A stretch of DNA of 60,115 bases, filler included, from 6 parts of 6 records of this genome joined end to end with filler, not necessarily neighbours in it, one strand, 5' to 3'; shown: positions 13,190-47,802, counted from the first letter of the whole stretch. Numbers and translations: made by a program. The notes: generated by a model from the sequence alone, not told the origin.

Positions 13190-13238
13190 TACGAACAAAA
13201 ACCAATAAAAAGAATTAATTTTAAAGCATTTACATATA

Positions 13239-13266
13239 TGAACTGCACCCCAAAAGTTGAACAAAC
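13239..13266 (+). mobile_element. Terminal inverted repeat of an IS3-family (IS150 group) element at the contig end
   Basis: TGAACTGCACCCCAAAAGTTGAACA resembles IS861/IS150-group ends (from recall); the assembly breaks right there. Confidence 0.7.
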
Positions 13267-13366
13267 NNNNNNNNNNNNNNNNNNNNNNNNNNNNNNNNNN
13301 NNNNNNNNNNTTAATTAATTAANNNNNNNNNNNNNNNNNNNNNNNNNNNNNNNNNNNNNNNNNNNN
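13267..13366. other. Artificial contig spacer
   Basis: N44-TTAATTAATTAA-N44 (stops in all six frames). Confidence 0.99.
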
Positions 13367-13367
13367 A

Positions 13368-16319: not shown

Positions 16320-16342
16320 CATTGGTATTAAAAAGAAAAAGA

Positions 16343-17268
16343 ATGAACTCATTTAAATTGTCCATATCTCCCCCCATAAAAACCGCATTCAAAAAACCGA
16401 TGGAGCTGGCTGCCGATGCCCTCTTTTTTGCTGCCGACGGGCTATCGGATCTGGCGCGTATTTTACACTACCAAAGGGTGGCGAACATTGAGTTCAAACA
16501 CAGACCGGATGACATTTTCATCGTCACTTATCCCAGATCCGGCACCACCTGGCTGCAAATGATCATGTATCAACTGATCAGTGACGGAAAAATGGAGATT
16601 GATCATATTGCCCAAAAAGTTCCCTGGTTTGAGCGACTGATCCACTACCGAATATGGGGGCCCGAGGAGTTTGAAACGATGCCCTCTCCCAGGATTTTCA
16701 AGTGCCACTTACCGGTAAATGAAATGCCGAAAGGAACGGGAAAATGCATCTATGTGGCTCGAAACGGATTTGATGTGGCTGTCTCTTACTTTGAGTTTTA
16801 CCGTTCACATCTGGATTTCAAAGGAAATTTCGATCAGTTCCTGAAACGATTTATCAAAGGTGATGTTCAATTCGGAAGCTGGTTTTCCCATGTGTCATCA
16901 TGGAAAAGAGTGGTGGAAAAAGGAAACAGCGCTCAAACGGGTGCCCCCCTCAAGTCCTCTTTTTGACATTCGAAGATTTGAAAAACGACTTTGAATCCCA
17001 GCTGGATAAAATCATATCCTTTACCGGATTTGACATTCCCAATAGCCGACGGCCCGGTATTATCGAACGATGCGGATTTGATTTCATGAAAGACCATGAA
17101 GAAAAATTCGATCACATTACAGCTCAAATTTGGGAGAAAAACTATAGACGGGCCGCTTTCATTAGAAAAGGCAACTCCGGCAGCGGTCACATCCAGTTTT
17201 CCAACACCCAAAAAGAAGCATTTCAACGCACATTGAAGCAATTTCACATCGAGACCCTATGCCCATGA
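16343..17268 (+). CDS. PAPS-dependent sulfotransferase (Sulfotransfer_1/SULT-like); frameshift in the C-run at about 16944-16949
   Basis: RPDDIFIVTYPRSGTTW (5'-PSB), YVARNGFDVAVSY (3'-PB), FGSWFSHV, LFLTFEDLK, and RKGNSG in the second frame. Confidence 0.88.
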
Positions 17269-20200
17269 CCCATTCATCCGCCACCGTCACCAACCAGACC
17301 GATACATTAAAACGACTCTACATCACCCTGAAACAGACCCAAAGTAAGCTTTCCAAGCTGAGGGCTGCAGCCAAGGAACCCATTGCCGTGATCGGCATGG
17401 CATGCCGATTTCCAGGAGGAGCGGACACCCCGGAAAAATTCTGGAATCTGCTGATGGAGGGAAAGGATGCCGTCATCGACGCCCCTTCGGATCGATGGAA
17501 CGGTGATGCCTGGCTTGATGAAGACCCCAATGCTCCGGGTAAAATGTTTACCATTCAGGGCGGATTTCTGACGGAACCGGTGGACACGTTTGATGCGGCG
17601 TTTTTCAACATCTCTCCCAAGGAAGCGAGGGCACTCGATCCCCAGCAACGGATGCTTCTGGAGGTGAGTCGTGACGCCTTTGAAAACGCAGGGATTGCCC
17701 CATTCGGGCTAAAAGGCAGTGCCTGCGGTGTTTTCCTTGGGATGTCAAGCGACGATTACGCACTGGCCCATCGTCATTCAGGAGACCACGAAGTAATCGA
17801 CGCCTATGCCATCACCGGCACCACGTTTTCAACCGCCTGCGGACGTCTCTCTTACACCTACGGATTCCAAGGCCCTTCCATGACTGTGGATACAGCCTGT
17901 TCATCGGCACTCACGGCAGTTCACCTGGCCTGCAAAAGTCTTCGAAGTAAAGAGTCCGAGATGGCTTTGGTGGGCGGAATCAACCTGATGCTCTCACCGG
18001 AATCCCATGTCTGCTTTTCCAAACTTCGCGCCATATCTCCGGACGGTCGATGCAAATCCTTTTCCGCTGATGCCAACGGTTACGTGCGGGGTGAAGGCTG
18101 CGGACTTGTCATTTTGAAGCGCCTTTCAGATGCACAAAAAGACAACGACCGAATTTTAGGACTCATCCGGGGGAGCGCCGTCAATCAGGACGGCAAAAGC
18201 AACGGATTGACCGCCCCCAACGGCAACGCCCAGAAAAAAGTGATATTGTCCGCCCTGGAAGACGCCGGGTTGCCGCCGGAAAATGTGGGATTCATAGAAA
18301 CCCATGGGACTGGAACTTCATTGGGAGACCCGATTGAGGCGGAAGCCGTCGGTGAGGTATTCGGCCCCCATTTTTCCATGGACCGAAAGCTGATCATCGG
18401 ATCCTGCAAGACCAACATCGGCCATCTGGAGCCTGCTTCAGGTATCGCGGCCCTCATCAAAACCGTGCTTTGCCTACAACACGGAACGATTCCTCCCAAT
18501 CTCCATTTCAATACCCCCAGCCCGTTCATCCCCTGGGATGAGGTTCCGCTTTTTGTGCCCCGAATGCCCATGGCGTGGAAACCGAATGAAAAGCCACCCG
18601 AGAAGGATCATGTGAAAAATGAACAAAATAGGATTCACAATGGGCAACGGAATGAACAGAAGAGGGGATGGAAAGATGATGAGAAAAAAATAAGCATCGG
18701 TGAACGTGTCGCCGGCATCAACGCATTCGGTTTTTCCGGTACCAACGTTCATATCATTATCAGTGAAACGCCCCTCACCACTTCCGTCCCGGATACCGTA
18801 CATGATTTTAATCCGACTAAAGCCGATGATCGTAGTGAACAAAATGCGTTCAATGATTTAAAAGAGACCGGGCTCGATAACCCATCCAGCCCGGCAAATG
18901 GAAACACCAACCATTTGCTGCCCATCTCCGCTAAAAGCGAAGCGGCACTCACATCATTACAGGATCGTTACCTGACATATCTGGAGCACCCGGAAAATCG
19001 ACATTCTCTTGCAGCGATCTGTAACACGGCGACTTGCGGTAGAGATCATTTCGCTTATCGAATGGCGGCAGTGGGCAGTACTCCCGAAGCGCTCATCAAA
19101 GGGCTTTCCAAACAGTCACCGATCAAAAGCGGCGCGGCACCTTCAACCGCCTTTCTTTTTACGGGTCAAGGGTCCCAATATCCCGGTATGGGGTTTGGCC
19201 TTTATCAGGCCGGATCTGTTTTCAAAGAAACCCTTGATTTATGCAACGAAATCTTGACACCGCTTTTGAACACCTCTTTGACTCAGCTTCTCTACAATCG
19301 GGAATCAAATCCGGATGCGTTGGCCGAAATCTTGAGTCAAACCCGTTTCACCCAACCGGCGCTTTTTGCCGTGGAGTATGCCCTCTATTCGTACTGGCGC
19401 TCTTTGGGAATCGTTCCCGATTTCATGATGGGGCACAGCGTTGGAGAGTATGTGGCGGCCTGTGCGGCCGGGTTGTTCTCTTTGGAGGATGGGCTGATGT
19501 TGATCTGCAGGCGAGCAGAGCTGATGCAGGGCCTCCCCTCAGGCGGAGCCATGGCTGCCGTGATGGCCAATGGCACCCAGGTTGCAGATGTTGTTTCAAA
19601 AGGAGGGTACACCATCTCCGTCGCCGCATACAATGGTCCCAAACAGACCGTCATTTCGGGTGCCGCGGCTGATGTGGACGCTGTCACAAGAGCATTCAAA
19701 GAGCAGGGAATGAAAGTGGCAACGCTTGTCGTCTCCCACGCCTTTCACTCCCACTTGATGAATCCGATTCTCGATGAGTTCGAGAAAACAGCCGCATCCA
19801 TTGCGTTCAAGAAGCCGTCGATCCGACTCATCTCAAATGTGTCCGGAGAAATCGGCGGAGAAGAGATGGCAGACGCCGCCTATTGGCGCAATCACATCAG
19901 ACAACCCGTACAGTTTTTAAAAAGCATGCAGACCCTTCACCGCGAGGGGGTGACGGTTTATGTTGAAGCGGGTCCCAAGCCGACCTTACTGGGAATGGGA
20001 AAAGCCGCCCTTTCCGATACCAAGGCAGAGTGGTTGCCGAGTCTCAGATCCGGACAACCCGACCGCCATGTCCTGTTCACAAGCCTTGGTAAGCTTTACA
20101 CTGCCGGTTTTGAGATCGACTGGAATCCGCTTCATAAAACCGATCTTGGAAAACCGGTGACGCTGCCCAACTACCCTTTTGAAAAAAAACGGTTCTGGAT

Positions 20201-23200
20201 GCCTATCCCATCGGCTTCAGGCCCTGGAGAAAGTTCAAGAATTACCCATTTTGAACGCAATGAACTTCACCCCTCAGGTGTGCGTTATGCCCCCCAAATC
20301 CGCATCAGGCAGATGGATCATCACATGCGCATAATGCGTCATCACGCCTCCATCCTTTGATCGATCGAAAAGTTACCTCACCGCTCCTTCAGAAGATTCT
20401 TTTTGAAACGACTTTCAGCCAAGATGCCCTCCCCTTTCTGGATGATCACCGCATCTTCGAACGAATGGTTGTCTCTGCCGCATCCCATCTCTCTTTACTT
20501 CAAGGGGCGGCAATAAATCTGTTTTCGGAATCAGGGTGCAGTATCGAAGACATTCTCTTCACACAGGCTCTGGTGATTCCCGAAGATCACCCCAAAACGG
20601 TGCAACTGATTTTGACACCGGTGAACGACGCGTCCCCTTCAGTCACCGATGAGTTGTCAGTCGGCATCAAATTGATTCGAGAACAGCATAAACCAAGAGC
20701 AGAAAAAGCCCGGACATTTGACTTTTCCATCATCAGTTTCTTTCCGGGTGAAGACCATTTCACGCAGCATGTCACCGGTAGAATCGCACCAAAGAAGCCG
20801 ACGGAACAAATAGGCCGACTTTCGCTCTCCAACGGGTGGCAACACTGTACGACCCATTGGGATGCTGGAGAGGTTTACGAATTCCAGAAGCAACGTCAAA
20901 TTTCTCTGGGACCGACCTACCGCTGGATCGATTCCATTCGCACCGGCAGCCGTCAGGCAGTCTGCCGATTAGTGCCTCCCATCGGGCTGGACTTCCAATC
21001 CTGGGGTCTGCATCCGGGGCTCATCGATTCCTGTTTCGGCTTGATGGTGACGGCCGCCGGGGGAGATCCGGATGCCACGTACATTCCTTTTGCTCTGGAA
21101 GAATTCCGTTGCCGAAGACAAAGTAAAGGGAAAAACCTCCAAGCCGTCGCTCAAATCCGCCCAACATCTCTTGAATCGAAACCCGAATCCGGTTCTGTAA
21201 CGCCCTCTGAAAAGTTGATTGGCGACATTCAACTTTTTGACCAAGATGGTCTGGTTGCAGAATGGATCGGCCTTGAAGGGCGTCAGGTGGATCCGGCCTC
21301 TTTGTTGAAAGCCGACCTCCATGGCTCAAACTCAGCTCGAGCCGGGGCAACGTCTGAAACGGATGGAATGATTTACGAGGTGCAATGGGAACCCCTTGAA
21401 ATAAATGCCGATACCAGCCCGGGCAATACTGCCCGGGTTGGGCTCAAAGGCGGAGAGTGGATTGTGATTGGAGATACCGATGGGGCTGCAAAATCACTAA
21501 ATGATCGGTTGAACAACATTGGGGCGACATCCAATTGCTGGTCCTGGGATATCCTCTCCGAATTTGATGAAAAGGCCCATGACAATAGCCCATTGCAGAC
21601 AATGCCGGATCCGGATACCGACCTCGAAACTCAACTCAACTCTCCTTCTTTAGAAGGGGTGGTCCATCTTGTATCTTCAGCTTGGGGCAAGAAGGAGGCC
21701 CATGAAAACATTGGGGGGATCAACAATAGGAAGCTGAATTTAAGACTTGAAGCACTGCAAAAAAAAATCTGTGGTCTCCCCCTGACACTTCTAAAAAAAC
21801 TGATTCAACAGAAAAACACCTCAGCGGAAGGACGCCCCCCTCGACTTTTCCTTGTCACCCAGGGGACTCAATCCGTGACTGAAACGGAAAATCGCATCGA
21901 CCCGCATGGCGGGACCTTGTGGGGCCTTGGCCGGGTCATTGCTTTGGAACACCCTGAAGTCAACCTGTCATTGGTAGATCTCGATCCCGATGAAAACATG
22001 GAAATTGCCCTTGACACGCTTGCAGACCTTTTGTCGAAACTTTCTGATGACCTATCCTCTTCAGTAGGAAGCGAATTTCAATTTGCAATCCGGAATAAGA
22101 CACTCTTTATCCCTCGTCTGATACGATCCGGAAATCACCTGTCCCCGACAACCCGATCTACAGCCGATTTTCTAGCCGGATCATCCTCACCATCGAAACC
22201 GGCATTGCCCTTTTCCAAAGCACATAGTTATCTCGTCACCGGTGGAATGGGCGGACTGGGACTGGTGACAGCCAAATGGCTTGCTGAAAACCAAGCCGGT
22301 TGCATTGTCCTTGCCGGGCGTAGTGCCCCTTCAATTGAGGTACAAGAAACCGTTGATTCTCTAAAAGCGAATACCCGGATCTTCGTATCGAAACCCGAAC
22401 GGTCGACATGGCGGATCCCGAGCAGATCAACTCTCTATTCGATGAACTTGAAACCGATCTTCCACCGCTCAATGGCGTCATTCATACTGCCGGCTTCCTA
22501 AACGACGGCATGCTGTCGCAGTTGGAATGGCCGAAATTTTGGGAGGTCATGGCTCCAAAAGTGACCGGCGCCTTTGTGATGGGTCAACGCATCGGCCAGT
22601 TGAAAGAGGATCTCGACCTATTCATCTGCTTCTCATCCATTGTTTCGATTTTGGGGACACCGGCACAGGGCAACTATGCGTCTGCCAACGCCTTTCTGGA
22701 CGGTATCTGCCGACAAAGAAAATCCCAGGGAAAACAAGCTCTTTCCATCAACTGGGGGCCCTTTGATCAAACCGGCATGGCTGCCCGTCTCAGCGAAACA
22801 AATAAAAAACGTATCACTAAACAGGGATTTACATTACTCCCTCCGGAGTTGGGATTGGTTGCACTGGAGAGACTTTTGGCGTCGAATCTCTCGGAGGGTG
22901 CGGTCATGGATGTGAATTGGTACACTTTTATCGACCGATATCATGCCTCTTTATCCTCAACAAGCCGAAGCGGTAATCGCGTTCAACCCGGTGAGCGGTT
23001 CCTGCAATATCTCATTCAATCTGAAAAAGAAAACTCCGAGTCAACATCTGCCAAGTCAAACATTACAGCATCACCACGCACCGAGCGGTCATATACCTGG
23101 CTCACCGAGTTGATTCAAGTCCCCGAATATGACCGTCAAGCGTGGTTATTCAATAAAATTCAGTCCGCGACCGCAGAAAGTCTGGGACTGGAAGAACCGG

Positions 23201-23672
23201 ATGAAGTGGCAGCCGATGCCCGCCTTTTCGATCTTGGACTGGATTCTCTTATGGCGGTGGAGCTCAAAAACACCATTGAGAAAAACCTCGATTGCCGATT
23301 GAAATCGACCCTGGTTTTCGACTACCCCACCGTCGAGACTCTCACCGGTTACCTGATGGAAAACATTCCCATGGAAGCTACTCGGCAAGAGTCGAATTCG
23401 GCAGAGCATCTTGTTCCTTCAACGGAAAAAAACCGGACAAGATTACCGACACTTCTACGACTGAAAAAGAATCCCATTATGATGAGAATTCCTCTTGGGA
23501 CGGAAAATCCCGCCAGTCAACGCCACCCTCAAATACAGAGCAATATCTCGATGAAGGCCGTGACGGTTTCATCTACACAAAGAAGACGGTCGAGGAAGCG
23601 GTGGCTGCTTTGAGTGATGAAGAAGCCGAGATGTTGCTTCTCAAGGAACTGGAAGAGCTCGATCTATCATGA
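17259..23672 (+). CDS. Single-module type I PKS, KS-AT-DH-KR-ACP (about 2100 aa), split by three frameshifts near 20290-20350, 22365 and 23430
   Basis: KS DTACSS/HGTGT/KTNIGH; AT GHSVG and HAFHS (malonyl type); DH HPLI..HRIFERMVVSA..HPGLIDS; KR GGMGGLG/HTAGFLNDG/NYASAN; ACP GLDSLMAVEL; docking tail LSDEEAEMLLLKEL. Confidence 0.9.
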
Positions 23673-25061
23673 CCTACACCCAATCGACATCCAAGCCCCT
23701 ATCCCCAGTCAAACAAGCGCTACTGGCAATCAAAAAACTTCAGGGAAAATACGATGATCTGAAAGCGCAAAAAAACGAACCCATTGCCGTTATCGGTATG
23801 GGGTGTCGATTTCCAGGTGGCGCCGACACGCCCGATGAGTATTGGGAGCTATTGAAAGACGGACGAGACGCCATCATGGAGGTCCCTGATTACAGATGGG
23901 ATATCGATAGCTGTTTCGACCCAAACCCGGAAACACCCGGCAAAATGTATTGTCGATACGGCGGTTTTCTCGGGCCCGTGGATGGATTCGACAGTCTCTT
24001 TTTCGGCCTTTCCCCTCGGGAGGTGGCCCGCATGGATCCTCAACATCGATTGGTATTGGAGGTGGCATGGGAAACCCTTGAACATGCAGGAATTCCCGCA
24101 TCGGAAGTGCATGGTGCGCCTGTGGGCGTTTTCTTGGGTAGTACCGCCTTTGATTACGGAACTCTTCTTTTCGGAGAGGGGGATCTCACCCGCATCGACG
24201 CCTTTTCCGGCACCGGCGGTACCCTCGGACCGGCAGCCGGACGCCTTTCCTATCTATTGGGATTGACCGGTCCGAGTTTCGTACTGGACACAGCTTGCTC
24301 ATCATCCATCGTGTCCGTCCATTTGGCATGTCAGAGTCTCAGAAACCGAGAGTGTGAGATGGCCCTTGCAGGGGGAGTGAATCTGGTGCTCATTCCGGCG
24401 GGTACGATCAACTTCTGTAAAGCGCGCATGCTTGCACCGGACGGACGTTGCAAAGCATTCGATGCTGCTGCCGACGGTTATGTTCGCGGTGAAGGATGCG
24501 GTATGGTGCTCTTAAAACGCCTCTCGGACGTCGTCCCCGATCATGACCGTATTTTGGCCCTGCTCAAAGGGTCGGCAGTGAATCAGGATGGACCTTCCGG
24601 CGGGTTTACCGTCCCATCCGGCCCGGCCCAGGAAAAGGTGATTCAATCCGCTCTGAGTGCAGCAGGGGTATCGCCTGAGCAGATCGACTACATCGAGGCC
24701 CACGGCACAGGAACCGCCTTGGGAGATCCCATCGAAGTGGAAGCTCTTGGTTCGGTATTCGGGCCATACAAAACAGCTGCATCGCCGCTTCACATCGGAT
24801 CGGTCAAGACCAACTTCGGTCACCTGGAGGCGGCAGCAGGCATCGCCTCCCTTATAAAGGTGATTCTCTCCTTGAATCATGACACGATTCCGCCCCATCT
24901 TCACTTCAACACTCCCAATCCCAGGGTGGAGTGGGATGCATTGCCGATTCAGGTCACAAAGGAATCCACTCCATGGAAAGAAAACGGAGACTCCAGGTTT
25001 GCCGGAATCTCATGTTTCGGATTCTCCGGGACCAATGCCCATCTCATTGTCGGGGAAGCCC
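23669..25061 (+). CDS. Type I modular PKS, N-terminal docking domain plus KS; 3'-truncated
   Basis: LSPVKQALLAIKKLQ docking helix, EPIAVIGMGCRFPGG, DTACSSS, HGTGT, KTNFGHLEAAAG, FGFSGTNAH. Confidence 0.95.
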
Positions 25062-25161
25062 NNNNNNNNNNNNNNNNNNNNNNNNNNNNNNNNNNNNNNN
25101 NNNNNTTAATTAATTAANNNNNNNNNNNNNNNNNNNNNNNNNNNNNNNNNNNNNNNNNNNN
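25062..25161. other. Artificial contig spacer
   Basis: N-run containing TTAATTAATTAA. Confidence 0.99.
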
Positions 25162-25271
25162 GGGGCGACGCAAGCCCCCATAATAGATTCAGAATATCAT
25201 TTATCCAAAATCAACACCCATGGTGTCATTATTATCCACCCATAAAAGAAGTATAAACTGTAAATCTAAGC

Positions 25272-25324
25272 TTGGTATCAGTTTTCAAATACCAAAAAAA
25301 TATTTTTTGGATAAAACCTTATCC
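25272..25324. promoter_or_regulatory. Candidate upstream activator sequences (enhancer) for the sigma-54 promoter
   Basis: Inverted repeats TTGGTAT-N10-ATACCAA (25272-25295) and GGATAA-N4-TTATCC (25309-25324), 105-155 bp upstream of the -24 box. Confidence 0.4.
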
Positions 25325-25427
25325 GCTACTCTCTAAATAGAAATAGCTCTCACTTATCACCAAACATCAAAACCCCATAACACATACATCAACCACCTCA
25401 ATAATGAATTAAGCAAAAAAAACGAGA

Positions 25428-25443
25428 TGGCACACCTCTTGCT
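25428..25443 (+). promoter_or_regulatory. Sigma-54 (RpoN) -24/-12 promoter
   Basis: TGGCAC-ACCTC-TTGCT matches TGGCAC-N5-TTGCW exactly; ends about 40 nt upstream of the radical SAM start codon. Confidence 0.85.
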
Positions 25444-25485
25444 AACATCATTCGGCTCAACCCTCTTCAAAAGAAAGGACGGCCG

Positions 25486-26829
25486 ATGAAAGCATCGATG
25501 TTTAATAAAATATATCCATTAAATGAGAAGGGTACTAAATATCTAATTTACAACACCTTTCACGATCACCAGATAATTGTTAGCAACGGAGACATCCTTG
25601 TAACAGATTTTTTTATAAAAATAGCTCAAGGAAAGAAACTAAACAAAGAAGAAGAAAAAGCAGCTTCAGAACTAGCAAAACTGGGAATAATTTTAGAAAA
25701 CGATGTTGACGAACTTGAAATATTTAACAACTGGTTCACAAACAAAATCCGTGAAGATAGTGACTATCTCAATATCACAATACTAACCTCTATGAAATGC
25801 AACCTCAGCTGTGATTATTGCTATGAAAAATCGGTCGCAACCAATGACATAATGGATGATGAGACAGTAAAAACTATTGTCTCTTTTTTATTAAAAAAAA
25901 TCATCTCATCATCTCCCAGCAAGATCCATATCGAATTCTATGGCGGCGAACCAATGACAAACATGGATGCCGTTACATATATTGCCGAAACGATAAAACA
26001 TTATTGCAAGTGGAGTGAAAGAAAAATAACCATAGGGATCACAACCAATGGGACATTACTAACCTCAAAAAACGCCGAAAGACTAAAAACAGCCGGAATT
26101 GACAGGCTTAAAATAACCCTGGATGGCTCCGAAGAATATCATGATAAAAAAAGATTTTTCAAAAAAACTCGAAAAGGAACTTTTGAAGCAATCTTCAACA
26201 ATCTAAACAACAACTCAGATGGTTTTGAAATACTAATCGGTGGCAACTTCGACAATAACAACTATAACAGCTTTCCTCTCCTAATTGAAGAACTCAAAAA
26301 ATCTAATTTTAGAGACAGGATTCGACATGTCAACTTCAAACCTATCATAGAAAATTTTGGTGGCAAAAAAGCATTTTGTCATATGAGCACACAAGATCCT
26401 TCAAATTATTCTAATAAAAGACTTTCTCAAATGCTCTATTTAAGGAAATTAATAAACGCTTCCGGACTGCCAACTTCAAACCAAATAGCTCTAGGCCCGT
26501 GTGAGTTCTACCGAAAAAACTCCCTAACCATAGACACTAATGGAGAAATCTATAGCTGTCCTGCCTTTGTCGGCAGGAAGAATTTCACTATCGGAAATAT
26601 CAACTTAATCAAATATTCAAAGCGTGGAGACTATTTCCACTCTCTCAAACCATGGCAACAAGACGACAATTGTGACAAGTGCGGCTATCTTCCTATTTGT
26701 GCTGGAGGTTGCAGGGCTAACGCATGGAATCAAAACAAAACGATCGAAGACGTTTCGTGTGATAAAGAATTTTTCAACCAAATCATCAACTCTGTGATCG
26801 TGTTACCAAACACAGAACACATTGCCTAA
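25486..26829 (+). CDS. Radical SAM/SPASM peptide maturase with a probable N-terminal RRE
   Basis: CNLSCDYC (CX3CX2C); FYGGEP; SPASM GPC...NGEIYSCPAF...CDKCGYLPICAGGC...SC; about 90-aa N-terminal extension typical of peptide maturases. Confidence 0.92.
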   Translation: MKASMFNKIYPLNEKGTKYLIYNTFHDHQIIVSNGDILVTDFFIKIAQGKKLNKEEEKAASELAKLGIILENDVDELEIFNNWFTNKIREDSDYLNITILTSMKCNLSCDYCYEKSVATNDIMDDETVKTIVSFLLKKIISSSPSKIHIEFYGGEPMTNMDAVTYIAETIKHYCKWSERKITIGITTNGTLLTSKNAERLKTAGIDRLKITLDGSEEYHDKKRFFKKTRKGTFEAIFNNLNNNSDGFEILIGGNFDNNNYNSFPLLIEELKKSNFRDRIRHVNFKPIIENFGGKKAFCHMSTQDPSNYSNKRLSQMLYLRKLINASGLPTSNQIALGPCEFYRKNSLTIDTNGEIYSCPAFVGRKNFTIGNINLIKYSKRGDYFHSLKPWQQDDNCDKCGYLPICAGGCRANAWNQNKTIEDVSCDKEFFNQIINSVIVLPNTEHIA

Positions 26830-26865
26830 ATCCTATTAGTTAACATGAAAGGAGGTGATATCGAT

Positions 26866-26943
26866 ATGACTATTGAAATAGTAAAAAAAGGAGATAACGT
26901 TGATTCTCCTAAGCCACTAATGTGTCTCCCAGTATGGATATAA
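26866..26943 (+). CDS. Putative RiPP precursor peptide, 25 aa, MTIEIVKKGDNVDSPKPLMCLPVWI (absent from the ORF track)
   Basis: Near-perfect SD AAAGGAGGTGA at 26848-26858, 7 nt before the ATG; 36 nt after the rSAM stop; followed by a terminator. Has a leader-like IEIVKKG and a hydrophobic Cys/Trp core. Confidence 0.82.
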   Translation: MTIEIVKKGDNVDSPKPLMCLPVWI

Positions 26944-26983
26944 AAAGTCTTTCCACATAAAAGGAAGGATACAGGGATATCAG

Positions 26984-27017
26984 AAAAAAGAGGAGTCTAA
27001 TTGATTCCTCTTTTTTT
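26984..27017 (+). terminator. Rho-independent terminator closing the rSAM-peptide transcript
   Basis: AAAAAAGAGGAGTC-TAATT-GATTCCTC-TTTTTTT. Confidence 0.8.
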
Positions 27018-27073
27018 GGAACCAGACATACATATATTGCAATAATAGATCATATTAGATATGCCTAATTTTA

Positions 27074-28648
27074 ATGAATAGACGCCCAAAAAGATATTTT
27101 TCATTACTCATATGCTACTTACCGTTAATCTTTTTGTCGACATTACTATATTCACCCGTTTGTAATTCTGAAAGCTATGGTGGGAATTTAGCGATTGGTT
27201 ATTTTGGACAAATCGAAGAAATCAACCCAACAGAAACAAACTCTGGAATAGGAGGGAATTTAATAGATATTGTTTTCGACTCGCTCCTTGAAATAGGGGA
27301 TGATGGAAATTTACTTCCAAGAATATCCGAGGAATGGTCAATTTCACAAGATCGACTTCTCTGGACATTTCACCTCCAAAAAAATATTCAATTTCATGAT
27401 GGGACTCCACTCACAGCCAAAGATGTAAAGTCTACTTATGAAGAAATCTTAAAGAAGAAATCGGGCCCCTATTTCAACTTTCTCAAACACATAAAGAACA
27501 TAACAGTAGTGGATGAGCACACTCTAAAAATTGAACTCAGCCAAAACGACAATACATTTCCCATTGCACTCTATGCAATTGGAATTGCAAAGAATGATGG
27601 GAAGTACATCGGTTCAGGACCTTTTCAACTTATATCGTCATCTTCCAAGGAAGCTTTTCTAAAAGCCAACACAAATCATTTCAGAGGACGTCCTTACTTG
27701 GATTCAGTCACTGTTAGATTTTTTCCAACTCAGAGAGCTAATCTTGCAGCACTTACATCAAAAGAAGTCGATATGCTCTATATCCATGATCAAAATGATT
27801 ACGGAATTCTTCGAAAGATTGCTCATATTAAAGTTTATCCATTAAAAACTCAAACAATGTCCATGGTTTTTCTCAACAACTCAAAAGAAATTTTCAGAGA
27901 CACTCTCGTTCGAAAAGCTCTAAACTATGCAATAGACAATAACAGAATCATAGAAACAGTCTTGAAGGGCAATGGTGATACAGCATTCACATTTGTTACC
28001 AATGAAAATGAATTATTCAATCCTGACATAGAAAAGTACAACTATGCACCTGATAAAGCGCTAGACTTGCTTAACAGCGCGGGATGGAAGAGTAAAGACT
28101 TCATACTCAAAAAAGACGGCGTCCCCTTTGAATTCATCTTAAATGTGATTAAAGAAAATGATCTACATAAAAACGTAGCCAGAGTTATTCAACAGCAACT
28201 AGACGAAATTGGCATTAGAGTACACATTAACCTTGTCCCATTCAACGAATTACTAAAAAACCTTTACAATGACAAAAATTACGATGCAGCAATAATCTCG
28301 GCAAACTTTAGATATAATCTTTTTAACAACTACTCGCTATGGCATTCGTCGCAAAGAGACAAAGGATCTAATTTTTCATTATACAAAAACTTAAAAGCAG
28401 ATATTGCTCTAGAAACAGCCAGAAAAACAAGCGAACATGAAATTTTAAAAAAATCATACATGAAATTTCAAAAAGAGATCAATAGCGACCCTCCTGTCAT
28501 ATTTCTCTTTTGGCTAAACTTTGCACTTGGCATAAACAAAGACTTTAAAAACATACCAGACAAACCAGACCTTTTTTTCAAAGCCTTACCAAACATATGG
28601 CTTGAAAAAGAAGTTCTAACCACAGGAAATCTTAGTTATGGAAAATAG
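27074..28648 (+). CDS. ABC transporter substrate-binding protein, family 5 (OppA/DppA/AppA-like)
   Basis: Signal peptide; family-5 signature WTFHLQKNIQFHDGTPLTAKDV; GSGPF; VRKALNYAID; WHSSQ. Confidence 0.9.
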   Translation: MNRRPKRYFSLLICYLPLIFLSTLLYSPVCNSESYGGNLAIGYFGQIEEINPTETNSGIGGNLIDIVFDSLLEIGDDGNLLPRISEEWSISQDRLLWTFHLQKNIQFHDGTPLTAKDVKSTYEEILKKKSGPYFNFLKHIKNITVVDEHTLKIELSQNDNTFPIALYAIGIAKNDGKYIGSGPFQLISSSSKEAFLKANTNHFRGRPYLDSVTVRFFPTQRANLAALTSKEVDMLYIHDQNDYGILRKIAHIKVYPLKTQTMSMVFLNNSKEIFRDTLVRKALNYAIDNNRIIETVLKGNGDTAFTFVTNENELFNPDIEKYNYAPDKALDLLNSAGWKSKDFILKKDGVPFEFILNVIKENDLHKNVARVIQQQLDEIGIRVHINLVPFNELLKNLYNDKNYDAAIISANFRYNLFNNYSLWHSSQRDKGSNFSLYKNLKADIALETARKTSEHEILKKSYMKFQKEINSDPPVIFLFWLNFALGINKDFKNIPDKPDLFFKALPNIWLEKEVLTTGNLSYGK

Positions 28649-29342
28649 TATTTCAAACATGGAATTGATTGCTTCTTTTTCATTGATAATCATAATTATA
28701 GCAATTTCGAAGATAAAAAATTTCGGCATAGGAAAAGATATTATCTCGTGCTCAATACGGGCTTTTGTTCAACTTATTTTAATGGGTTACGTTATTCAAA
28801 TTTTATTTAAAATCGAAACTACGCCACTCCTCCTAGCAATCCTCCTAGCAATGTCGGCTATTGCTGCCATAAATCCTTCAAAGAGGGCTCCAGAAATCCC
28901 TCATCTATACTGGATTATACTATCGTCTCTATTTTTGAGCTCGGTCTTAGCTCTTGTCCCCCTCACACTCACCGGTGTAGTTGAAAATAACGCAAAAATT
29001 ATTATTCCACTTGGAGGCATGATTATTGCCAATTCAATGGCCGCATCTTCTATTTTCATCGACAGATTTAAATCAGAGCAACTAAAAACGTCTGAAGGTG
29101 ATATTCATTCTAAACTAAAGATTTCATTCAAAACAGCAACAATCCCGGTAATTGACACAACAAAAATAACCGGACTTGTGAGCGTCCCTGGAATAATGGT
29201 TGGAATGATAATGAGTGGTGTCTCACCTATCGTCGCTGTAAAGTACCAAATAGCAATTCTTTATATGATACTTTTTTCATATATAATTTCTTTATTTTTT
29301 ACATTTACAATACTTGGAAAAACAATTTCAAAAAAACGATAA
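28638..29342 (+). CDS. FetB/YbbM (UPF0014) ABC-permease-like membrane protein
   Basis: IRAFVQLILMGY, IIPLGGMIIANSM, GLVSVPGIMVGMIMSGVSPIVAVKYQI motifs. Confidence 0.85.
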   Translation: MENSISNMELIASFSLIIIIIAISKIKNFGIGKDIISCSIRAFVQLILMGYVIQILFKIETTPLLLAILLAMSAIAAINPSKRAPEIPHLYWIILSSLFLSSVLALVPLTLTGVVENNAKIIIPLGGMIIANSMAASSIFIDRFKSEQLKTSEGDIHSKLKISFKTATIPVIDTTKITGLVSVPGIMVGMIMSGVSPIVAVKYQIAILYMILFSYIISLFFTFTILGKTISKKR

Positions 29343-31069
29343 TGAAAAGTATATCGACAAAACTGATAGCCCTACTTACAACAGCTGCAATATTACCGCT
29401 GATTCTATTTGGCATACTCACAATTATAAACGCCAGAGAAACTGCAATAATCAGCATTCAAAAAGGAAATATCCAGTCGGCACGATACGCATCTGGCCAA
29501 ATAATGCAATACATCAATAATTCACTAAACATTCTCGAGTCCCTAGCCCAAAATATCAATAACCCTGATATAAGCTCATATCAGCGAGAGCGAATACTAA
29601 GAAACTATGCAATCAATTTTAAAGAATTTAACTATATAGAGACTGTAAAAATGAATGGCTTCGTCCTAACATCTACCAAACTCGAAAAGGACGGTCATAA
29701 GACAAGAGCATTAATGAGTTCTTCAGAATTCAACCCCAAAGACAACCGCCTCTCAGAGGTCTTTATAACCACCGACAAAACTCCTGCCATGACCATTTCA
29801 ACACCTCTAAAGCATCTTGGAAACACAAATGGAATACTCGTTGCCGAACTTGACCTTATGAACATGTGGCATTTAGTTGATGAAATGACCATTGGGAAAA
29901 AGGGATATGTAAACATAGTAACTGGCAGCGGCCGATTAATTGCAAGTGGCCACCCATCACTAAAACAAGAGATCTTTAAAGAAGGTGTTTATAGAAACAT
30001 AGATACACTTCAAAATTTTGAATCATCTTCAAACAACTCCCTCTTTACGTTACAAAATGGTGACGAAGAGATAACGTTAGCTATAATTAAACTCCCTAAC
30101 CCACTCAACTGGTTCATAGTAATCGAACAACCGGCAAAAGAAGCTTACTTATTAGCAACCTCAATGACGATAAACTTGATAACACTAATAGTGTTATTCA
30201 TATTAATAGTAACAATAACGGGCTACTTCAGTGGTAGAAAACTTTTTGTAAAACCTATTCAAACACTAATTCTAATGACAAAGAAAATAGCTGGCGGAAA
30301 TTTATCTCAACATATAACCTTAAACAGCAATGATGAGCTCGGAGAATTAGCGAAATCATTTAACCAAATGTCCCATAACTTAATTGAACTCAAAGAAAAT
30401 GTTAGAAAAAAAGAACGAATGGCTGTATTTGGACGCATAGCCTCCGGCCTTGCTCACGATCTTAAACATCCTATTCAAAGCATAAAAAATGTATGCAGAC
30501 TATTAACTCAAAACAATAACGCTGACTATTCAGATATTGTTAATTCTACTTTTACCCGTGAATTCCAGAAAATAGACAGCTTCCTAGAAAACCTTCACAA
30601 CCTAACTAAAGACATCCCATATAATCCAGTTAATCTTGACCCAAATAAGGTTTTATTAGAGACTATTATCAATTTCCAGCAACAGCTCATAGACAGCTCA
30701 ATTGAATTACACCTAAAACTTACCGAAAGCCCGACACTAATTCATGCTGATCGTTTTTCTTTAATTAGAATTTTTTCAAATTTAATTTTAAACGCTATCC
30801 AAGCATGCAGCGATGGAGATTCCATCACTATAAAAAGCGAAAAAATGAATCCAAAACTATTTATTATTGAAATAGAAGATACCGGTCGAGGCATCGAAAA
30901 GGACGAAATCAATAATATTTTTCAGGATTTTACAACAACAAAACATAGCGGACTAGGCCTCGGACTTGCCCTTTGCAAGCGAATATTGGACCAACATAAT
31001 GCTAAAATATATGTAGAAAGCAAAGTTAACAAAGGAACGATTTTTAAACTAACTTTTAATAGACTTTAA
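29342..31069 (+). CDS. Membrane sensor histidine kinase (Cache-like periplasmic domain, HAMP, HisKA, HATPase)
   Basis: Two TM helices around an extracytoplasmic domain; HAMP DELGELAKSFNQM; H-box LAHDLKHP; N-box NLILNAIQA; DTGRGI; GLGLGL. Confidence 0.93.
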   Translation: MKSISTKLIALLTTAAILPLILFGILTIINARETAIISIQKGNIQSARYASGQIMQYINNSLNILESLAQNINNPDISSYQRERILRNYAINFKEFNYIETVKMNGFVLTSTKLEKDGHKTRALMSSSEFNPKDNRLSEVFITTDKTPAMTISTPLKHLGNTNGILVAELDLMNMWHLVDEMTIGKKGYVNIVTGSGRLIASGHPSLKQEIFKEGVYRNIDTLQNFESSSNNSLFTLQNGDEEITLAIIKLPNPLNWFIVIEQPAKEAYLLATSMTINLITLIVLFILIVTITGYFSGRKLFVKPIQTLILMTKKIAGGNLSQHITLNSNDELGELAKSFNQMSHNLIELKENVRKKERMAVFGRIASGLAHDLKHPIQSIKNVCRLLTQNNNADYSDIVNSTFTREFQKIDSFLENLHNLTKDIPYNPVNLDPNKVLLETIINFQQQLIDSSIELHLKLTESPTLIHADRFSLIRIFSNLILNAIQACSDGDSITIKSEKMNPKLFIIEIEDTGRGIEKDEINNIFQDFTTTKHSGLGLGLALCKRILDQHNAKIYVESKVNKGTIFKLTFNRL

Positions 31070-31129
31070 GCCAAGCTCATCACTTGGCTCTTGAAAATCA
31101 ACAAGTAAGGTCGTATACTTTCAAGCAAT

Positions 31130-32134
31130 ATGCAAATTGAACATATAAAAGACGGCATCAAACTAAGAGCAACTTGCCCACCTCAAAAAATCGCTAAATC
31201 ACACTATTTCTATAAGCAACTCTTTGAAATATGCAATTTTTCAATCATTGTAACATGCAAGGATTCTGGGGTCATTATCGATGCAAACAATCATGCTACA
31301 AAACTATTCAATAGAGATCTAGTTGGATTTCATATTAGTGACCTTCATCCATTATCAAAATTAAGCGGTTTTGACATTGACGATAAAGATTTTATGCTAA
31401 AAGAACTTGAAATAAGTTCAGAGGATACCAATTTTGCAATATTGATATTATTCCGAGCAATTTATTCACATGATCTCAATTCCGACACGTTCTTAGCAAC
31501 AATGGCTCATGAACTTAGAAACCCTATTAGCGTAATAAAAGTTGCTTCATACAATATCAACAGAAAGAGCTCCAACGAGTCAATTAAGGGAAACCTCTCA
31601 AGAATCGACAAAAAACTTCTTGAGTGTGATGAAATCATTGATGACTGCTTAAACCTCGCAAAAAAAGAGATTAAGAGATTTAAAAAGGTGTCGATACTCA
31701 ATGCTATCAGAGAATGCCTTACTCATTATTCAAAAAAACATAAAGACTGCAATATCACTCTTGATCTAAATAACGAGTCTGATGATGACAACATTCTGAT
31801 TTTTTGCAATCCGACACATCTGAATCAAATTCTACACAATGTCATTAAAAATGCATGTCAAGCTGTGCCAAAAAATTCTGGAACAATAACTATTTCCCTG
31901 CAGACATTTTCTGATGGCAATACCTGCAAAGTTTCCATTGCTAATGATGGTCACACTATTAGTCCTGAAAATTTGGAAAAAGTACTACTCCCCTTCTTTT
32001 CTACTAAACAAGGGGGAACAGGGCTTGGTTTGGCAATCACAAAGCAGCTAATGTCATTAAATGGCGGCAAACTCGAAATAGACAGTAATGAAACAGATGG
32101 GACTACAGTTTCACTGTTTTTCACAACAGCCTAA
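31130..32134 (+). CDS. Soluble histidine kinase with a degenerate PAS-like N-terminus
   Basis: IIDANNHATKLF (PAS-like); MAHELRNP; NVIKNACQA; PFFSTKQGGTGLGL. Confidence 0.88.
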   Translation: MQIEHIKDGIKLRATCPPQKIAKSHYFYKQLFEICNFSIIVTCKDSGVIIDANNHATKLFNRDLVGFHISDLHPLSKLSGFDIDDKDFMLKELEISSEDTNFAILILFRAIYSHDLNSDTFLATMAHELRNPISVIKVASYNINRKSSNESIKGNLSRIDKKLLECDEIIDDCLNLAKKEIKRFKKVSILNAIRECLTHYSKKHKDCNITLDLNNESDDDNILIFCNPTHLNQILHNVIKNACQAVPKNSGTITISLQTFSDGNTCKVSIANDGHTISPENLEKVLLPFFSTKQGGTGLGLAITKQLMSLNGGKLEIDSNETDGTTVSLFFTTA

Positions 32135-32163
32135 TAACTACCCACTCACTTAATCAGTTTTTT

Positions 32164-32263
32164 NNNNNNNNNNNNNNNNNNNNNNNNNNNNNNNNNNNNN
32201 NNNNNNNTTAATTAATTAANNNNNNNNNNNNNNNNNNNNNNNNNNNNNNNNNNNNNNNNNNNN
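32164..32263. other. Artificial contig spacer
   Basis: N-run containing TTAATTAATTAA. Confidence 0.99.
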
Positions 32264-38848: not shown

Positions 38849-38948
38849 NNNNNNNNNNNNNNNNNNNNNNNNNNNNNNNNNNNNNNNNNNNNTTAATTAA
38901 TTAANNNNNNNNNNNNNNNNNNNNNNNNNNNNNNNNNNNNNNNNNNNN
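38849..38948. other. Artificial contig spacer
   Basis: N-run containing TTAATTAATTAA. Confidence 0.99.
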
Positions 38949-38964
38949 AAAAAGGAGGATTAGT

Positions 38965-40131
38965 ATGAAACAGAAATTTAAACAAAATATATTTCTTATT
39001 TTATCAATACTTATTAGTATCTATATTCCGTTAATAGGAAGTTTGATAAAGTATAATGGAGATATTCCAGGATATGGAGATTTTCCAGCGAAACAAGTTA
39101 TTTCGCCTCCAGGATTCGATCCTATTTTTTTTGGAGTAGGAGTTATAATTGCTTTAACTATTACAATATTTTTATTATTTCCTAGAATGTTTGGATTTAA
39201 AAAAAATAGTGTAGAGAAACTTAACGTAGGAGCAACTTCGTTTCCAGTGTGGTTTAAATATGGAATAATAATATTTACGGTGAGCTTCTTAATATTTTGG
39301 GGAAAAATTCCATTAATTGATAATTTTATAGATTCATTTATGTTTGTTCCATTATGGTGGGGAATGATATTAATATTAGATGGAATTGTGTATAAAAGAA
39401 GTGGTGGGAGATCATTAATAGCTTCCAAAATGAAAACCCTTGTTTTATTGGCAATAGTTTCAAGTGTCGGTTGGTTTATTTTTGAATATCTTAATTTTTT
39501 CATTTTAGAAAATTGGTATTATCCAAATAATAAAGTATTTACTGTTTACGGAAATTACGTATGGTATATGGCTTCATATACGATAATTTTTCCACAACTG
39601 TTTGAGATTTATAATTTATTTGAAACGATTCCGAGTATTAGAGATAAGTACAAATATGGTCCAAAGGTTGAATTTACAAAATCTAAGCAATATCTGATCC
39701 TTGGTCTAGGAATTGTATTCTCATTTTTAATGGGTTTATTTCCTCGGCAGTTATTTTTTACTGTTTGGACAAACCCAGTTCTTATAATGGCGGGAATTTT
39801 AGGACTATTAGGTATTTGGAATCTTTTTTCACCAATGAAAAGCGGAGATTGGTCAAAATTATTATTGATTGGAATAGCTATGGTTGTCTGCGGTCTGATG
39901 TGGGAATTTGTTAATTTTGGGAGTGAAAAATTTTATAATTATGCTCCAGTGAATCCAAGTTACTGGAAGTATGCTGTTCCTTATGTTAACAAGATTCATC
40001 TACCGTTTTCTGAGATGCCGATTTTAGGTTATTTTGGTTATATACCTTATGGATGGGCATGTTGGTTGCAATGGACATTGGCCGCTAAGTTATTTGGTTT
40101 TGATGAGAAAATAAGCATTGAAGATAAATAG
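38965..40131 (+). CDS. Conserved polytopic membrane protein of unknown function
   Basis: AGGAGG RBS; about 9-10 TM segments; repeated E..N....W.Y motifs (FEYLNFFILENWYYP; WEFVNF...YWKYAVPY..EMPILGY). Confidence 0.75.
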   Translation: MKQKFKQNIFLILSILISIYIPLIGSLIKYNGDIPGYGDFPAKQVISPPGFDPIFFGVGVIIALTITIFLLFPRMFGFKKNSVEKLNVGATSFPVWFKYGIIIFTVSFLIFWGKIPLIDNFIDSFMFVPLWWGMILILDGIVYKRSGGRSLIASKMKTLVLLAIVSSVGWFIFEYLNFFILENWYYPNNKVFTVYGNYVWYMASYTIIFPQLFEIYNLFETIPSIRDKYKYGPKVEFTKSKQYLILGLGIVFSFLMGLFPRQLFFTVWTNPVLIMAGILGLLGIWNLFSPMKSGDWSKLLLIGIAMVVCGLMWEFVNFGSEKFYNYAPVNPSYWKYAVPYVNKIHLPFSEMPILGYFGYIPYGWACWLQWTLAAKLFGFDEKISIEDK

Positions 40132-40171
40132 AGAGAAATAAAAAGATATATGCGAATTGGAGGAATTGATA

Positions 40172-43100
40172 ATGTTGCTATCAAACTACGAATTAAATGA
40201 CAAGCTATATGAGAGTAAAATTTCGATAGTTTATCGTGCATTAAGAAAAGCGGATAATAAATCTGTAATAATAAAAATTTTAAATGAGGAATATCCTTCC
40301 AAGGAGCAATTATCTCGTTTTCATTATGAATATAAACTTTTGAAGAGTTTTAATTCAGAAAGAATAATAAAAGCATATAGTTTTGAAAAATACGGAAAAA
40401 GTGTTGCAATAGTTTTGGAAAATTTTGGTGGACTTTCTATTAATCAATATAATTTAAAATCATTAAGTGTAAAAAAAGCATTAGAACTTTTTATAAATGT
40501 AGTTGAAACTATTGATGTAATTCATAAAAATAATACTATCCATAAAGATATAAGTCCGTCTAACATTTTATGGAATGCTAAGACTGATGAAGTAAAAATA
40601 ATTGATTTTGGAATTGCGACTAGATTATCAAATGAAAAACTAAAGTTGATTAATTCAGATCTACTAGAAGGTAAATTGGCATATATATCTCCTGAACAAA
40701 CAGGGAGAATGAACCGTACTATTGATTACAGAAGTGATCTATATTCATTAGGAGCTACATTTTATGAAGTTTTTACAAACCAAAAAGCATTTCCAAATGC
40801 AAAAGATGAAATGGAATTAGTTCATTGCCACTTAGCAAGACAACCAATGGCTCCACACAAAATTAATAAAAATATACCTCCGCAAATTTCTCAAATAATT
40901 ATGAAATTGATGTCAAAAAATGCTGAAAATAGATACCAAAGTATTTTTGGATTGAAGGCTGATTTGTACAAGTGTTTAAAGCAGCTAGAGAAAATTGATG
41001 ATATAGAGAAGTTTGAGTTAGGAAAAGAAGATCATTTAAATAGATTTCAAATTCCAGAAAAATTGTATGGTAGAACAGATGATATAGAAGATTTAATGGA
41101 AGGGTTTAAACGTGTATGTAATGGAAATACTGAAATGATGTTGGTATCAGGTTCTGCAGGCGTGGGGAAATCTGTATTGGTAAATGAGCTTCATAAACCA
41201 GTAGTAAGGCACAGAGCTTATTATATTTCAGGGAAATACGATCAATTTCAAAGAAGTATTCCCTACAGAGGAATTATCGAAGCATTTAAGGAATTTATTA
41301 AACAATTATTGGGAGAAAGTCCTGAAAAAATTGAGGTTTGGAAAGATAAATTTATTGAAGCTCTCGGGGCTAATGCACAGATTATTATAGATGTAATCCC
41401 GAGGTTTGAATTGATAATTGGAAAACAAAAAGCTGTTCCTGAATTAAATTCAGCTGAAGCTCAGAATAGATTTAATTTAGTCGTTCAAAACTTTATTCAA
41501 ACTGTTGCAACAGCAGAACATCCACTAGTTATTTTTCTTGATGATCTACAATGGGCTGACGATGCTTCACTGAAATTCATAGAGATGTTACTTAATGCTC
41601 AAGGTAAGGGATACTTATTTGTAATAGGATCGTATCGTGATAATGAAGTGGAGAAATCTCCTCAATTAGAGTTAGCTATAAAAGAGATAATGGATAACGG
41701 AGTAGCTATAAATAGAATCAAGCTAACACATTTTGGGAAGAAAGAGATATGTCAATTATTGGAAGACTGTTTAAAGAAGGCTGATGAAAGTATTGTTAAT
41801 TTAGCAGACATAATTTTGGACAAAACAGAAGGAAATCCATTTTTTATTAACGAATTTTTATCTTTTATTTATTCAGAAAAGCTAATTACTTTTGACTATG
41901 ATTTACGTGAATGGAAATGGGATGTAGATGATATAAAGAAACTGGGAGTAACAGATAACATAGTAGACCTAATGATCAAGAAAATCAAAAAACTAGATAG
42001 CAAAACTCAGGAGGTTCTAAATCTATCTGCTGTTATTGGAAATAGCTTTGACATTGAAACTTTGGCGACTATATTCCATAAATCAAAAACAGAGACAGCC
42101 ATTGATTTATGGGGTGCCTTACAAGCAAACATAATTATTCCTATAGATGATTCATATAAATATACAAATGATTTAGAAAGTATGAATCCTAGATATAAAT
42201 TTCTACATGATAAAATTCAACAAGCAGCATACTCTCTAATTGAAGAAAATAAACGGAAGGAACTTCATCTACAGCTAGGAAGAAGTATCTCCGAGGAGAA
42301 GCAAGCGGAGCATGTTTTTGATGTAGTCAGCCATTTAAACTTAGCAAGAGAGTTAATTATAGACAAATTAGAAAAAGAGAGATTAGCAGAGTTGAACTTT
42401 AAGGCAGCTATAAAAGCAAAGAGATCAGCAGCTTATGCTCAAGCTTATAATTATATTAAAATTGCTTTTAGTTTATTTGATAATGCTGAATATAGATTAG
42501 AAAACAAGTTATTACTTAGCCTACATATTGAAGGAGCAGAGATTGCTTATTTAAATGCTGATTATAACTATATGCAAGAGCTTGGGGAAGTAGTAATTAA
42601 AAACGCAGAAAATTTAGCGGATAAAATTCATATTTATGATATTCAAGTTAGAACTTATTTGGCTAAAAACAATTTAGTAGAAGCAATTGATGTTGTACTC
42701 CATGCATTGAGTTTATTAGATATAAACATTTGTAAAACACCAAGTGAAGATGATATAACACAAGGTTTATTGAAAATACAAGAGATATGTTCTCAAAGAA
42801 AAGTTGAAGATTTAATAGAACTCCCTCAAATGACAGACTTAGATAAATTGGCAATAATGAGAATTATCTCAACAGTGATGCCAGTAACATATGTTGCAAA
42901 TCCTTCATTAGTTCCGATGTTTGCTTTTACAATGGTAGAGTTATCAGTGAAATATGGAAATGCGCCAGCTTCAGCATTTGGTTATGCGACATATGGACTT
43001 GTACTTTCTGGCTCAGTTGGCGATATTGATACTGGTTATAAATTTGGTGAATTAGCTTTAAATTTATTGAATGAAATAGATGCAGGAGAGTTTAAAGCGA

Positions 43101-47801: not shown

Positions 47802-47802
47802 A

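Follow-up and report, generated by a model that had tools for sequence, protein, structure and literature searches.

A radical SAM-made peptide encoded beside its presumed sensor: a conserved bacterial gene cassette that looks like a new type of peptide signalling

Why would a bacterium keep the genes for making a small modified peptide directly in front of those for a solute-binding protein and a membrane-bound sensor kinase? This question is raised by a 7,002-nt contig (positions 25162-32163) within a stretch of 60,115 nucleotides, hereafter the window, on which an earlier note had been made from the sequence alone. On this contig a sigma-54 promoter precedes the genes for a radical S-adenosylmethionine (SAM)/SPASM maturase and a 25-residue precursor peptide, and these are followed by a terminator and by genes for a family-5 solute-binding protein, a FetB-like permease and a Cache-type histidine kinase. 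Arguing from gene context, we give slightly better than an even chance to the idea that these parts form an autoinduction loop, in which a ribosomally made, post-translationally modified peptide (RiPP) is self-sensed. As detailed below, a conserved cassette occurs in several phyla, and the contig bears a divergent version of it with low GC. Since the window consists of six contigs joined by five N44-TTAATTAATTAA-N44 linkers, genomic context is confined to the one contig that bears the whole finding.

The promoter, the SPASM maturase, a peptide gene of 25 codons backed by a Shine-Dalgarno sequence and the terminator had all been proposed in the earlier note, and we find each of them where it had been placed (Table 1). 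The same goes for the three overlapping, co-oriented genes downstream, where the binding-protein gene overlaps the permease gene by 11 nt and the latter overlaps the kinase gene by 1 nt. Exact matches to the sigma-54 consensus number two in the window as against 0.05 expected from 100 shuffles, and the 91-nt stretch around the terminator folds with -31.4 kcal/mol (z -5.9), a stability reached by none of 200 shuffles. The maturase belongs to its superfamily by PF04055 (63 bits) and by the SPASM model TIGR04085 (62 bits vs a cut-off of 27), and both its CX3CX2C motif (C105, C109, C112) and its SPASM cysteines (C339, C358, C396, C399, C405, C409, C425) are invariant among 30 sequences. It is without a close relative, the top identity being 46%. 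Its best NCBIfam family, TIGR04280, aligns with residues 1-439 and gives 277.7 bits, under the cut-off of 400; CefB (192 bits), PapB (150 bits), SCIFF (105 bits) and TIGR04463 come next, all far under their equivalog cut-offs. An independent assembly, of a DNA run that is possibly the source, has the locus on a contig of 15,231 nt, which extends 8.2 kb beyond the second kinase and 13 nt upstream of our contig start. In that assembly, an extra A (26983) and an extra T (27010) in the terminator arms make the stem one A-U pair longer.

Table 1. Positions of the features discussed, in the window unless a related locus (L number) is given
Feature	Location	Strand	Description
Candidate activator-binding palindrome	25292-25310		CCAAAAAAATATTTTTTGG; 127 nt upstream of -24 element; weak
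Sigma-54 (-24/-12) promoter	25428-25443	+	exact TGGCAC-N5-TTGCT, TGGCACacctcTTGCT; 58 nt before maturase ATG
Radical SAM/SPASM peptide maturase	25486-26829	+	447 aa; Pfam Radical_SAM, Fer4_12, SPASM
Shine-Dalgarno sequence of peptide gene	26850-26857	+	AGGAGGTG; 8 nt before ATG at 26866
Precursor peptide gene	26866-26943	+	25 codons; encodes MTIEIVKKGDNVDSPKPLMCLPVWI
Intrinsic terminator	26984-27017	+	8-bp stem containing GC and 5-nt loop, flanked by A-run and U-run
Family-5 solute-binding protein	27074-28648	+	524 aa; SBP_bac_5 251.8 bits
UPF0014 (FetB-like) membrane permease	28638-29342	+	234 aa; PF03649 168.6 bits
Sensor histidine kinase	29342-31069	+	575 aa; transmembrane segment 1 (TM1), extracytoplasmic dCache_1, TM2, HAMP, HisKA, HATPase
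Second kinase HK2	31130-32134	+	334 aa; cytoplasmic PAS-HisKA-HATPase; last gene of contig
Linkers (six-frame-stop)	13267-13366, 25062-25161, 32164-32263, 38849-38948, 47702-47801
Shared-stem terminators	L081:1985-2020, L082:11490-11520, L083:2054-2080, L159:11498-11525, L001:11535-11570
HD_5 protein	L082:11567-12163
HD_5 protein	L082:883-1863	-
HD_5 protein	L159:15700-16818

Do maturase, peptide and sensor belong together? Scanning metagenome contigs and, for each species, one genome under the guidance of a profile yielded 160 loci (numbered L001 and so on), among which 66 have a maturase tblastn match of at least 200 bits. Downstream genes were counted in the 24 loci with at least 5.5 kb of 3' sequence and upstream genes in the 38 with at least 2.3 kb of 5' sequence. 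Both a family-5 binding protein and, behind it, a kinase are present in 20/24 and a full-length kinase orthologue (tblastn) in 22/24, a kinase being counted only if its alignment with that of the window began within the first 120 residues and so ran through the sensor domain. Directly upstream of the maturase, 28/38 loci carry a full-length gene of the REC-Sigma54_activat-HTH_8 type, and in L001 and L082 the activator sits one gene further off, behind a TonB-dependent receptor. Signal gene, kinase and regulator thus stand together in the relatives, and the window contig is without the regulator. Domain content was checked with Pfam in nine example loci, and RpoN is present in five of five cassette genomes. 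The named records with the cassette belong to Acidobacteriota/Vicinamibacterales (12 loci), Omnitrophota (2) and Auribacterota (1), and to an unclassified bacterium (L001).

The reverse search, which used the sensor region alone, returned the cassette kinase as the single match in four of five cassette genomes, and the same kinase plus one weak extra match in the fifth. Within 301 sampled genomes from the phylum of L003, the sensor region matches ten (E<=1e-8), once in each. Nine of these places were new; seven of them lie in a complete row of activator, maturase, binding protein and kinase, another is cut by the contig start and keeps the binding protein, and the weakest (24% identity) shows no cassette in the 10 kb examined. 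When the window proteins are compared with the databases, the nearest relatives of the binding protein and those of the kinase all have their highest similarity to copies from cassettes; kinase region 1-300 gave no match in a word-indexed protein search, and a full HMMER search did recover relatives. Hence conserved gene order, the check proposed in the earlier note, is borne out in both directions for the maturase and the peptide as well as for the binding protein, the kinase and the sigma-54 activator.

That note had also counted the permease as part of the system, and here our data disagree. The UPF0014 permease occurs in no other cassette, PF03649 has no match in any of the five cassette genomes and the sole other tblastn hit (L014) lies 7 kb off on the opposite strand, so that we regard the permease as a lineage-specific insert rather than a core part, perhaps filling a transporter slot. 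Only the broad UPF0014 Pfam family fits it (124.6 bits vs a cut-off of 410 for the FetB equivalog TIGR00245), and a gene for a partner FetA ATPase is absent from the contig. For the second kinase (HK2), which the earlier note had not listed, conservation in the related loci was likewise not found.

As for the conserved sensor parts, the binding protein has a signal peptide that ends at Cys30 and is probably secreted and lipid-anchored. It stays under all NCBIfam equivalog cut-offs (NikA 171 vs 393, Opp5A 150 vs 600, CntA 138 vs 800), and the contig carries neither a permease of the binding-protein-dependent (BPD) type nor an ATP-binding cassette (ABC) ATPase with which it could form a nickel or oligopeptide importer; Opp-type permeases and ATPases are missing as well, as the earlier note had it. 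In 20/24 loci a binding protein without cognate ABC permease or ATPase is paired with a kinase whose sensor lies outside the cytoplasm, and the two genes frequently overlap by 4 nt in the relatives. In the window kinase, two transmembrane segments enclose residues 40-266, and its top NCBIfam matches are AtoS and ZraS, partners of sigma-54 activators. Complex prediction with the sensor domain (38-268) and the binding protein (33-524) gave a score of 0.01 for a mark of 0.34, which, with alignments unused by the tool, is no verdict either way.

Regulatory signals in the relatives agree with this layout. With the pattern TGG[ACT]A[CT]-N5-TTGC, searched on the coding strand up to 300 nt upstream of the maturase in 55 eligible loci, a sigma-54 site was found in 28; the remainder of these loci, 1.17 Mb in all, has nine, so that 0.0023 would be expected per 300 nt. 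Each of the four closest relatives with upstream sequence (L081, L082, L083, L159) has TGGCAC or TGGCAT 56-70 nt before the start, as in the window, and the promoter class agrees with the linked regulators in that the relatives' activators carry Sigma54_activat. In 7/8 relatives that were folded, a hairpin with a U-run, resembling a terminator, comes after the peptide gene. Together with the gene overlaps, the promoter and hairpin data therefore give a conserved layout in which the sigma-54 promoter is followed by maturase and peptide, these by the terminator, and this by binding protein and kinase. The sigma-54 sites and conserved terminators fit an inducible biosynthetic unit that is followed by a sensor unit. 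A near-identical terminator stem, GGGGAUUGAA ... UUCAAUCCCC, is found in five loci (Table 1), the flanking proteins being only ~35-60% identical.

Upstream of the promoter we also noted a palindrome, a weak candidate for an activator-binding site; it is of the CCAA-N-TTGG type, as are palindromes that occur 5' of sigma-54 sites in L082 (~9787-9802) and L083 (~437-473). A common activator-binding palindrome was considered and rejected, as spacing and position vary between loci.

What does the peptide look like? Small open reading frames (ORFs) 3' of the maturase, with an MKIxIVKK-type start and a C-terminal core containing Cys, are present in 52/61 eligible loci. Across 54 distinct peptides the Cys is invariant (54/54), being the sole Cys in 50, and mostly has Lys-Pro at -5/-4 and an aromatic residue at -1. 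The window peptide, with its MTIEIVKK leader, one Cys and the five-residue tail LPVWI, is, like its nearest relatives, among ten peptides that end 4-6 residues past the Cys in aromatic-rich tails, for example C-LPVWI, C-AAYYF, C-EWSYW and C-WWMIYK. Acidobacterial peptides run 11-16 residues past the Cys, often as C-P-W-x-[IV]-D-[DE]-P-P. None of 11 cassette peptides matches an NCBIfam model (E up to 10), the geopeptide precursor included, if one sets aside a methanobactin model that matched one relative over 8 residues at chance level (E 0.99). In some acidobacterial loci (L102:2346-2595, L110:6090-6324), a tandem pair of near-identical precursor genes follows the maturase. Because of the families that the maturase resembles and because its closest solved chain is 5wgg, which we take to be the thioether-forming CteB, the most likely chemistry, judged from sequence, would be a single thioether ring between Cys and a carbon atom.

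From the parts, their order and their conservation, which we observe, we infer chemistry, ligand identity, contact between binding protein and kinase, and feedback as follows. The sigma-54 promoter would drive a two-gene operon for the maturase and the 25-residue precursor that ends at the terminator. The maturase would probably close a small thioether ring between the single invariant Cys and a residue that lies a few positions further downstream, after which the leader would be removed and the product exported. Outside the cytoplasm, the transporter-less binding protein may capture the product and signal to the dCache kinase encoded directly behind it. This kinase, in turn, would phosphorylate an NtrC-type sigma-54 activator, whose gene lies beside the maturase in the relatives and off the window's contig, and the activator would switch on the maturase-peptide operon, closing a positive feedback. 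For the product we favour a role as cell-to-cell pheromone, and another activity in addition is possible.

Divergence between the cassettes is in line with such a pairing. Among 22 cassettes complete for all five parts (231 pairs), mean pairwise identity is 65% for the activator, 56% for the cytoplasmic part of the kinase and 53% for the maturase, and falls to 42% for the kinase sensor, 36% for the peptide core and 32% for the binding protein. The fastest-diverging parts are hence binding protein, sensor domain and peptide core, a ranking that fits co-diversification of signal and receptor and is suggestive of it. Moreover, the sensor slots can be filled by other families. In four more distant loci of Nitrospirota/Thermodesulfovibrionales (L016, L018, L024, L033), a TonB receptor, the maturase and sometimes a methyltransferase are followed by a binding protein of PF04392, a kinase of the sCache_4-HAMP type and a sigma-54 activator. 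Since unrelated binding-protein and sensor families stand in the same slots, the link between peptide synthesis and sensor seems to be functional rather than inherited by chance.

Further parts come and go. TonB-dependent receptors accompany the non-acidobacterial cassettes L001, L015, L082 and L159 and also 17/36 more distant loci, and occasional additions include an ABC exporter (L011, L015, L127), a gene of the major facilitator superfamily (L001) and a methyltransferase (L085). HD_5 (HD-GYP-like) proteins, two with receiver domains, are encoded in or beside the closest cassettes L082 and L159 (Table 1), which hints at a cyclic-di-GMP output. A broader picture may be envisaged in which mostly diderm, largely uncultured bacteria run pheromone circuits across phyla: a secreted mini-peptide cyclised by a radical SAM enzyme would be re-imported through TonB receptors where there is an outer membrane, and perceived by binding protein, Cache kinase and NtrC-type activator acting on a sigma-54 promoter, the diverging parts providing private 'dialects' much as Agr pherotypes do. 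We put this forward tentatively, at somewhat less than an even chance, and the same estimate covers, jointly with the circuit itself, the groups that would share it, that is Acidobacteriota, Omnitrophota, Auribacterota, the Nitrospirota-type relatives and the window's low-GC lineage.

Several of our results weigh against a self-sensed loop. A response regulator is absent from the contig, where a Pfam scan found neither a receiver domain nor a sigma-54 activator (as the earlier note had anticipated); Sigma54_activat is likewise missing among the 41 window ORFs scanned, and upstream of the promoter both assemblies give out after some 266 nt. In the relatives, 27/55 loci yielded no sigma-54 site with our pattern, and 4/24 lack a downstream binding protein by tblastn, two of them (L014, L142) together with the kinase; the other two (L010, L011) keep the kinase, and L011 has its binding protein upstream. 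The divergence ranking is only suggestive because exported and periplasmic proteins in general evolve faster. Nor does a partial Mantel test give a specific sign of co-evolution, as the correlation of peptide core with binding protein, with activator distance taken into account, is r 0.46, and the control with the cytoplasmic part of the kinase scores as high (r 0.51). Finally, the named proteins that come closest to the binding protein bind peptides and nickel, being of the NikA, Opp and AppA types.

This last point leads to a rival explanation which we consider unlikely though deserving of serious thought, namely that the sensor unit reads an unrelated external cue (oligopeptides, nickel or another solute) and that the peptide has its role elsewhere, for instance as an antimicrobial, with no self-sensing at all. 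RiPP clusters are commonly under the control of two-component systems that respond to outside cues, and it is gene context that ties the ligand to the peptide. A fixed ligand, however, would be expected to conserve its receptor and to occur in other contexts, whereas the receptor parts diverge as fast as the peptide core, and sensor domain and binding protein are essentially cassette-only. Neither would the replacement of both by unrelated families in the same slots be easily understood, and the TonB receptors in non-acidobacterial cassettes fit the re-import of a bulky self-made molecule. The same receptors, here and in the distant loci, could also serve a methanobactin-like metallophore whose metal-loaded form is taken up or sensed, the kinase then reporting the availability of the metal-peptide complex. 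To our minds this is rather improbable. The lone Cys is probably consumed in the thioether and the core is aromatic and hydrophobic, there is no inner-membrane importer, the binding-protein gene runs into the kinase gene and MbnB/MbnC-type genes are lacking. What speaks for it is a weak relation of the binding protein to 5icq (E 4.9e-15), MbnE, the family-5 binding protein of methanobactin operons, together with the nickel and opine-metal binders among the top NCBIfam matches, the FetB-like permease of the window locus and the insignificant leader resemblance to methanobactin mentioned above; but all NCBIfam metal-binder models score far under their cut-offs and the permease is absent from the other cassettes. 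As to the two operons being unrelated neighbours, with binding protein, permease and kinase as part of an ordinary transport and regulation unit, the strong terminator between the units and the permease between binding protein and kinase could be taken that way. This we find hardly credible, since the arrangement recurs in Acidobacteriota, Omnitrophota, Auribacterota and unclassified bacteria in both search directions and the terminator itself is conserved.

The 'probably Gram-negative' of the earlier note is not decidable for this contig, because six contigs are joined in the window, one of them bearing sporulation genes, and its composition points in mixed directions. The closest cassettes encode outer-membrane receptors, and sequence neighbours of the UPF0014 permease are most often from Pseudomonadota (few records only). 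Tetranucleotide correlations of the finding's contig with the others in the window range from 0.43 to 0.63. Coding-strand GC skew shows G>C in 1-13266, 38949-47701 and 47802-60115 and C>G in 13367-25061 and 25162-32163, and such opposite skews suggest a mixed bin. In contig 1-13266, adjoining genes for SpoIIR, a SleB-like spore-cortex hydrolase and YpeB (2576-5164), with functions in sporulation and germination, indicate an endospore-forming Firmicute; skews and tetranucleotide correlations give no link between it and the contig of the finding. Contig 13367-25061 has 50% GC vs about 33% elsewhere in the window and is possibly foreign to the remaining bin. It carries a modular polyketide synthase (13515-25061; KS-AT, DH, KR, ACP) with a sulfotransferase-domain gene, a combination resembling curacin/olefin-synthase-type terminal modules. 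Elsewhere, 40157-46102 encodes a 1,981-aa protein that fuses Ser/Thr kinase, AAA_16 ATPase, GAF and histidine-kinase ATPase domains. Neighbourhoods across linkers are artificial, and ORFs that reach them, for example 23669-25117, are truncated genes.

Peptide signalling between cells is textbook knowledge for Firmicutes and rare and poorly documented in diderm phyla, and we know of almost nothing on communication in the abundant soil Acidobacteria. With its six parts and its defined promoter and terminator, the cassette is a compact circuit that lends itself to testing and could reveal a pheromone made by a radical SAM enzyme, a binding protein that acts as peptide co-receptor of a kinase and autoinduction driven by sigma-54. 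If the product were a metallophore or a self-inducing antibiotic, the cassette would still define a new class of regulated RiPPs, and its built-in biosensor would be of use for natural-product discovery. No description of the cassette was found in the full-text literature that we searched (subscription journals and supplementary files lay outside it). Conserved but unstudied, the cassette looks like a new type of bacterial peptide signalling.

How does it compare with known systems? In the databases, the nearest is the geopeptide family of NCBIfam, whose maturase model TIGR04280 (a hypothetical equivalog) is the top family of our maturase; a short Cys peptide gene adjoins in both and distant relatives go by that name in NCBI. 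The maturase nonetheless stays below the family cut-off, and the cassette peptides fail to match the precursor model, which we take to be TIGR04229. As neither 'geopeptide' nor 'TIGR04280' is used in any paper of the literature searched, geopeptide is only a database label without known function. The next-best maturase families, CteB (SCIFF), PapB (ranthipeptides) and CefB, share the CX3CX2C motif, the seven-Cys SPASM domain and an invariant Cys in the substrate; unlike theirs, with many, the cassette precursor has one Cys, its scores lie far below the cut-offs and its chemistry is predicted from sequence. Methanobactin operons likewise combine a modified ribosomal peptide, a TonB receptor (in our case in the relatives) and a family-5 binding protein without known permease. 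They differ in having MbnB and MbnC, of which there is no sign in the five large contig proteins, instead of a radical SAM maturase, and an extracytoplasmic-function sigma factor instead of a kinase and sigma-54 activator, and the cassette core has one Cys and is aromatic.

On the sensing side, LuxP/LuxQ, TorT/TorS and the chitin-binding protein with ChiS provide the closest parallels, sharing with the cassette a periplasmic binding protein that lacks a cognate importer and is encoded beside, often with overlap, a kinase whose sensor is extracytoplasmic and of PAS/Cache type. In the cassette, by contrast, the presumed ligand is a ribosomal peptide from its own locus, the binding protein is of family 5 or PF04392 and its contact with the kinase is a presumed one. 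As a circuit, the cassette resembles AgrBDCA and nisin NisRK, where a modified Cys peptide from a leader-core precursor acts through a membrane kinase and its own operon is induced, and the short, ring-sized tail after the Cys is reminiscent of Agr in particular. Unlike both, it is without immunity genes and has relatives in diderm phyla with TonB receptors, and it relies on a radical SAM maturase, a separate binding protein with a dCache sensor and an NtrC-type activator working with sigma-54.

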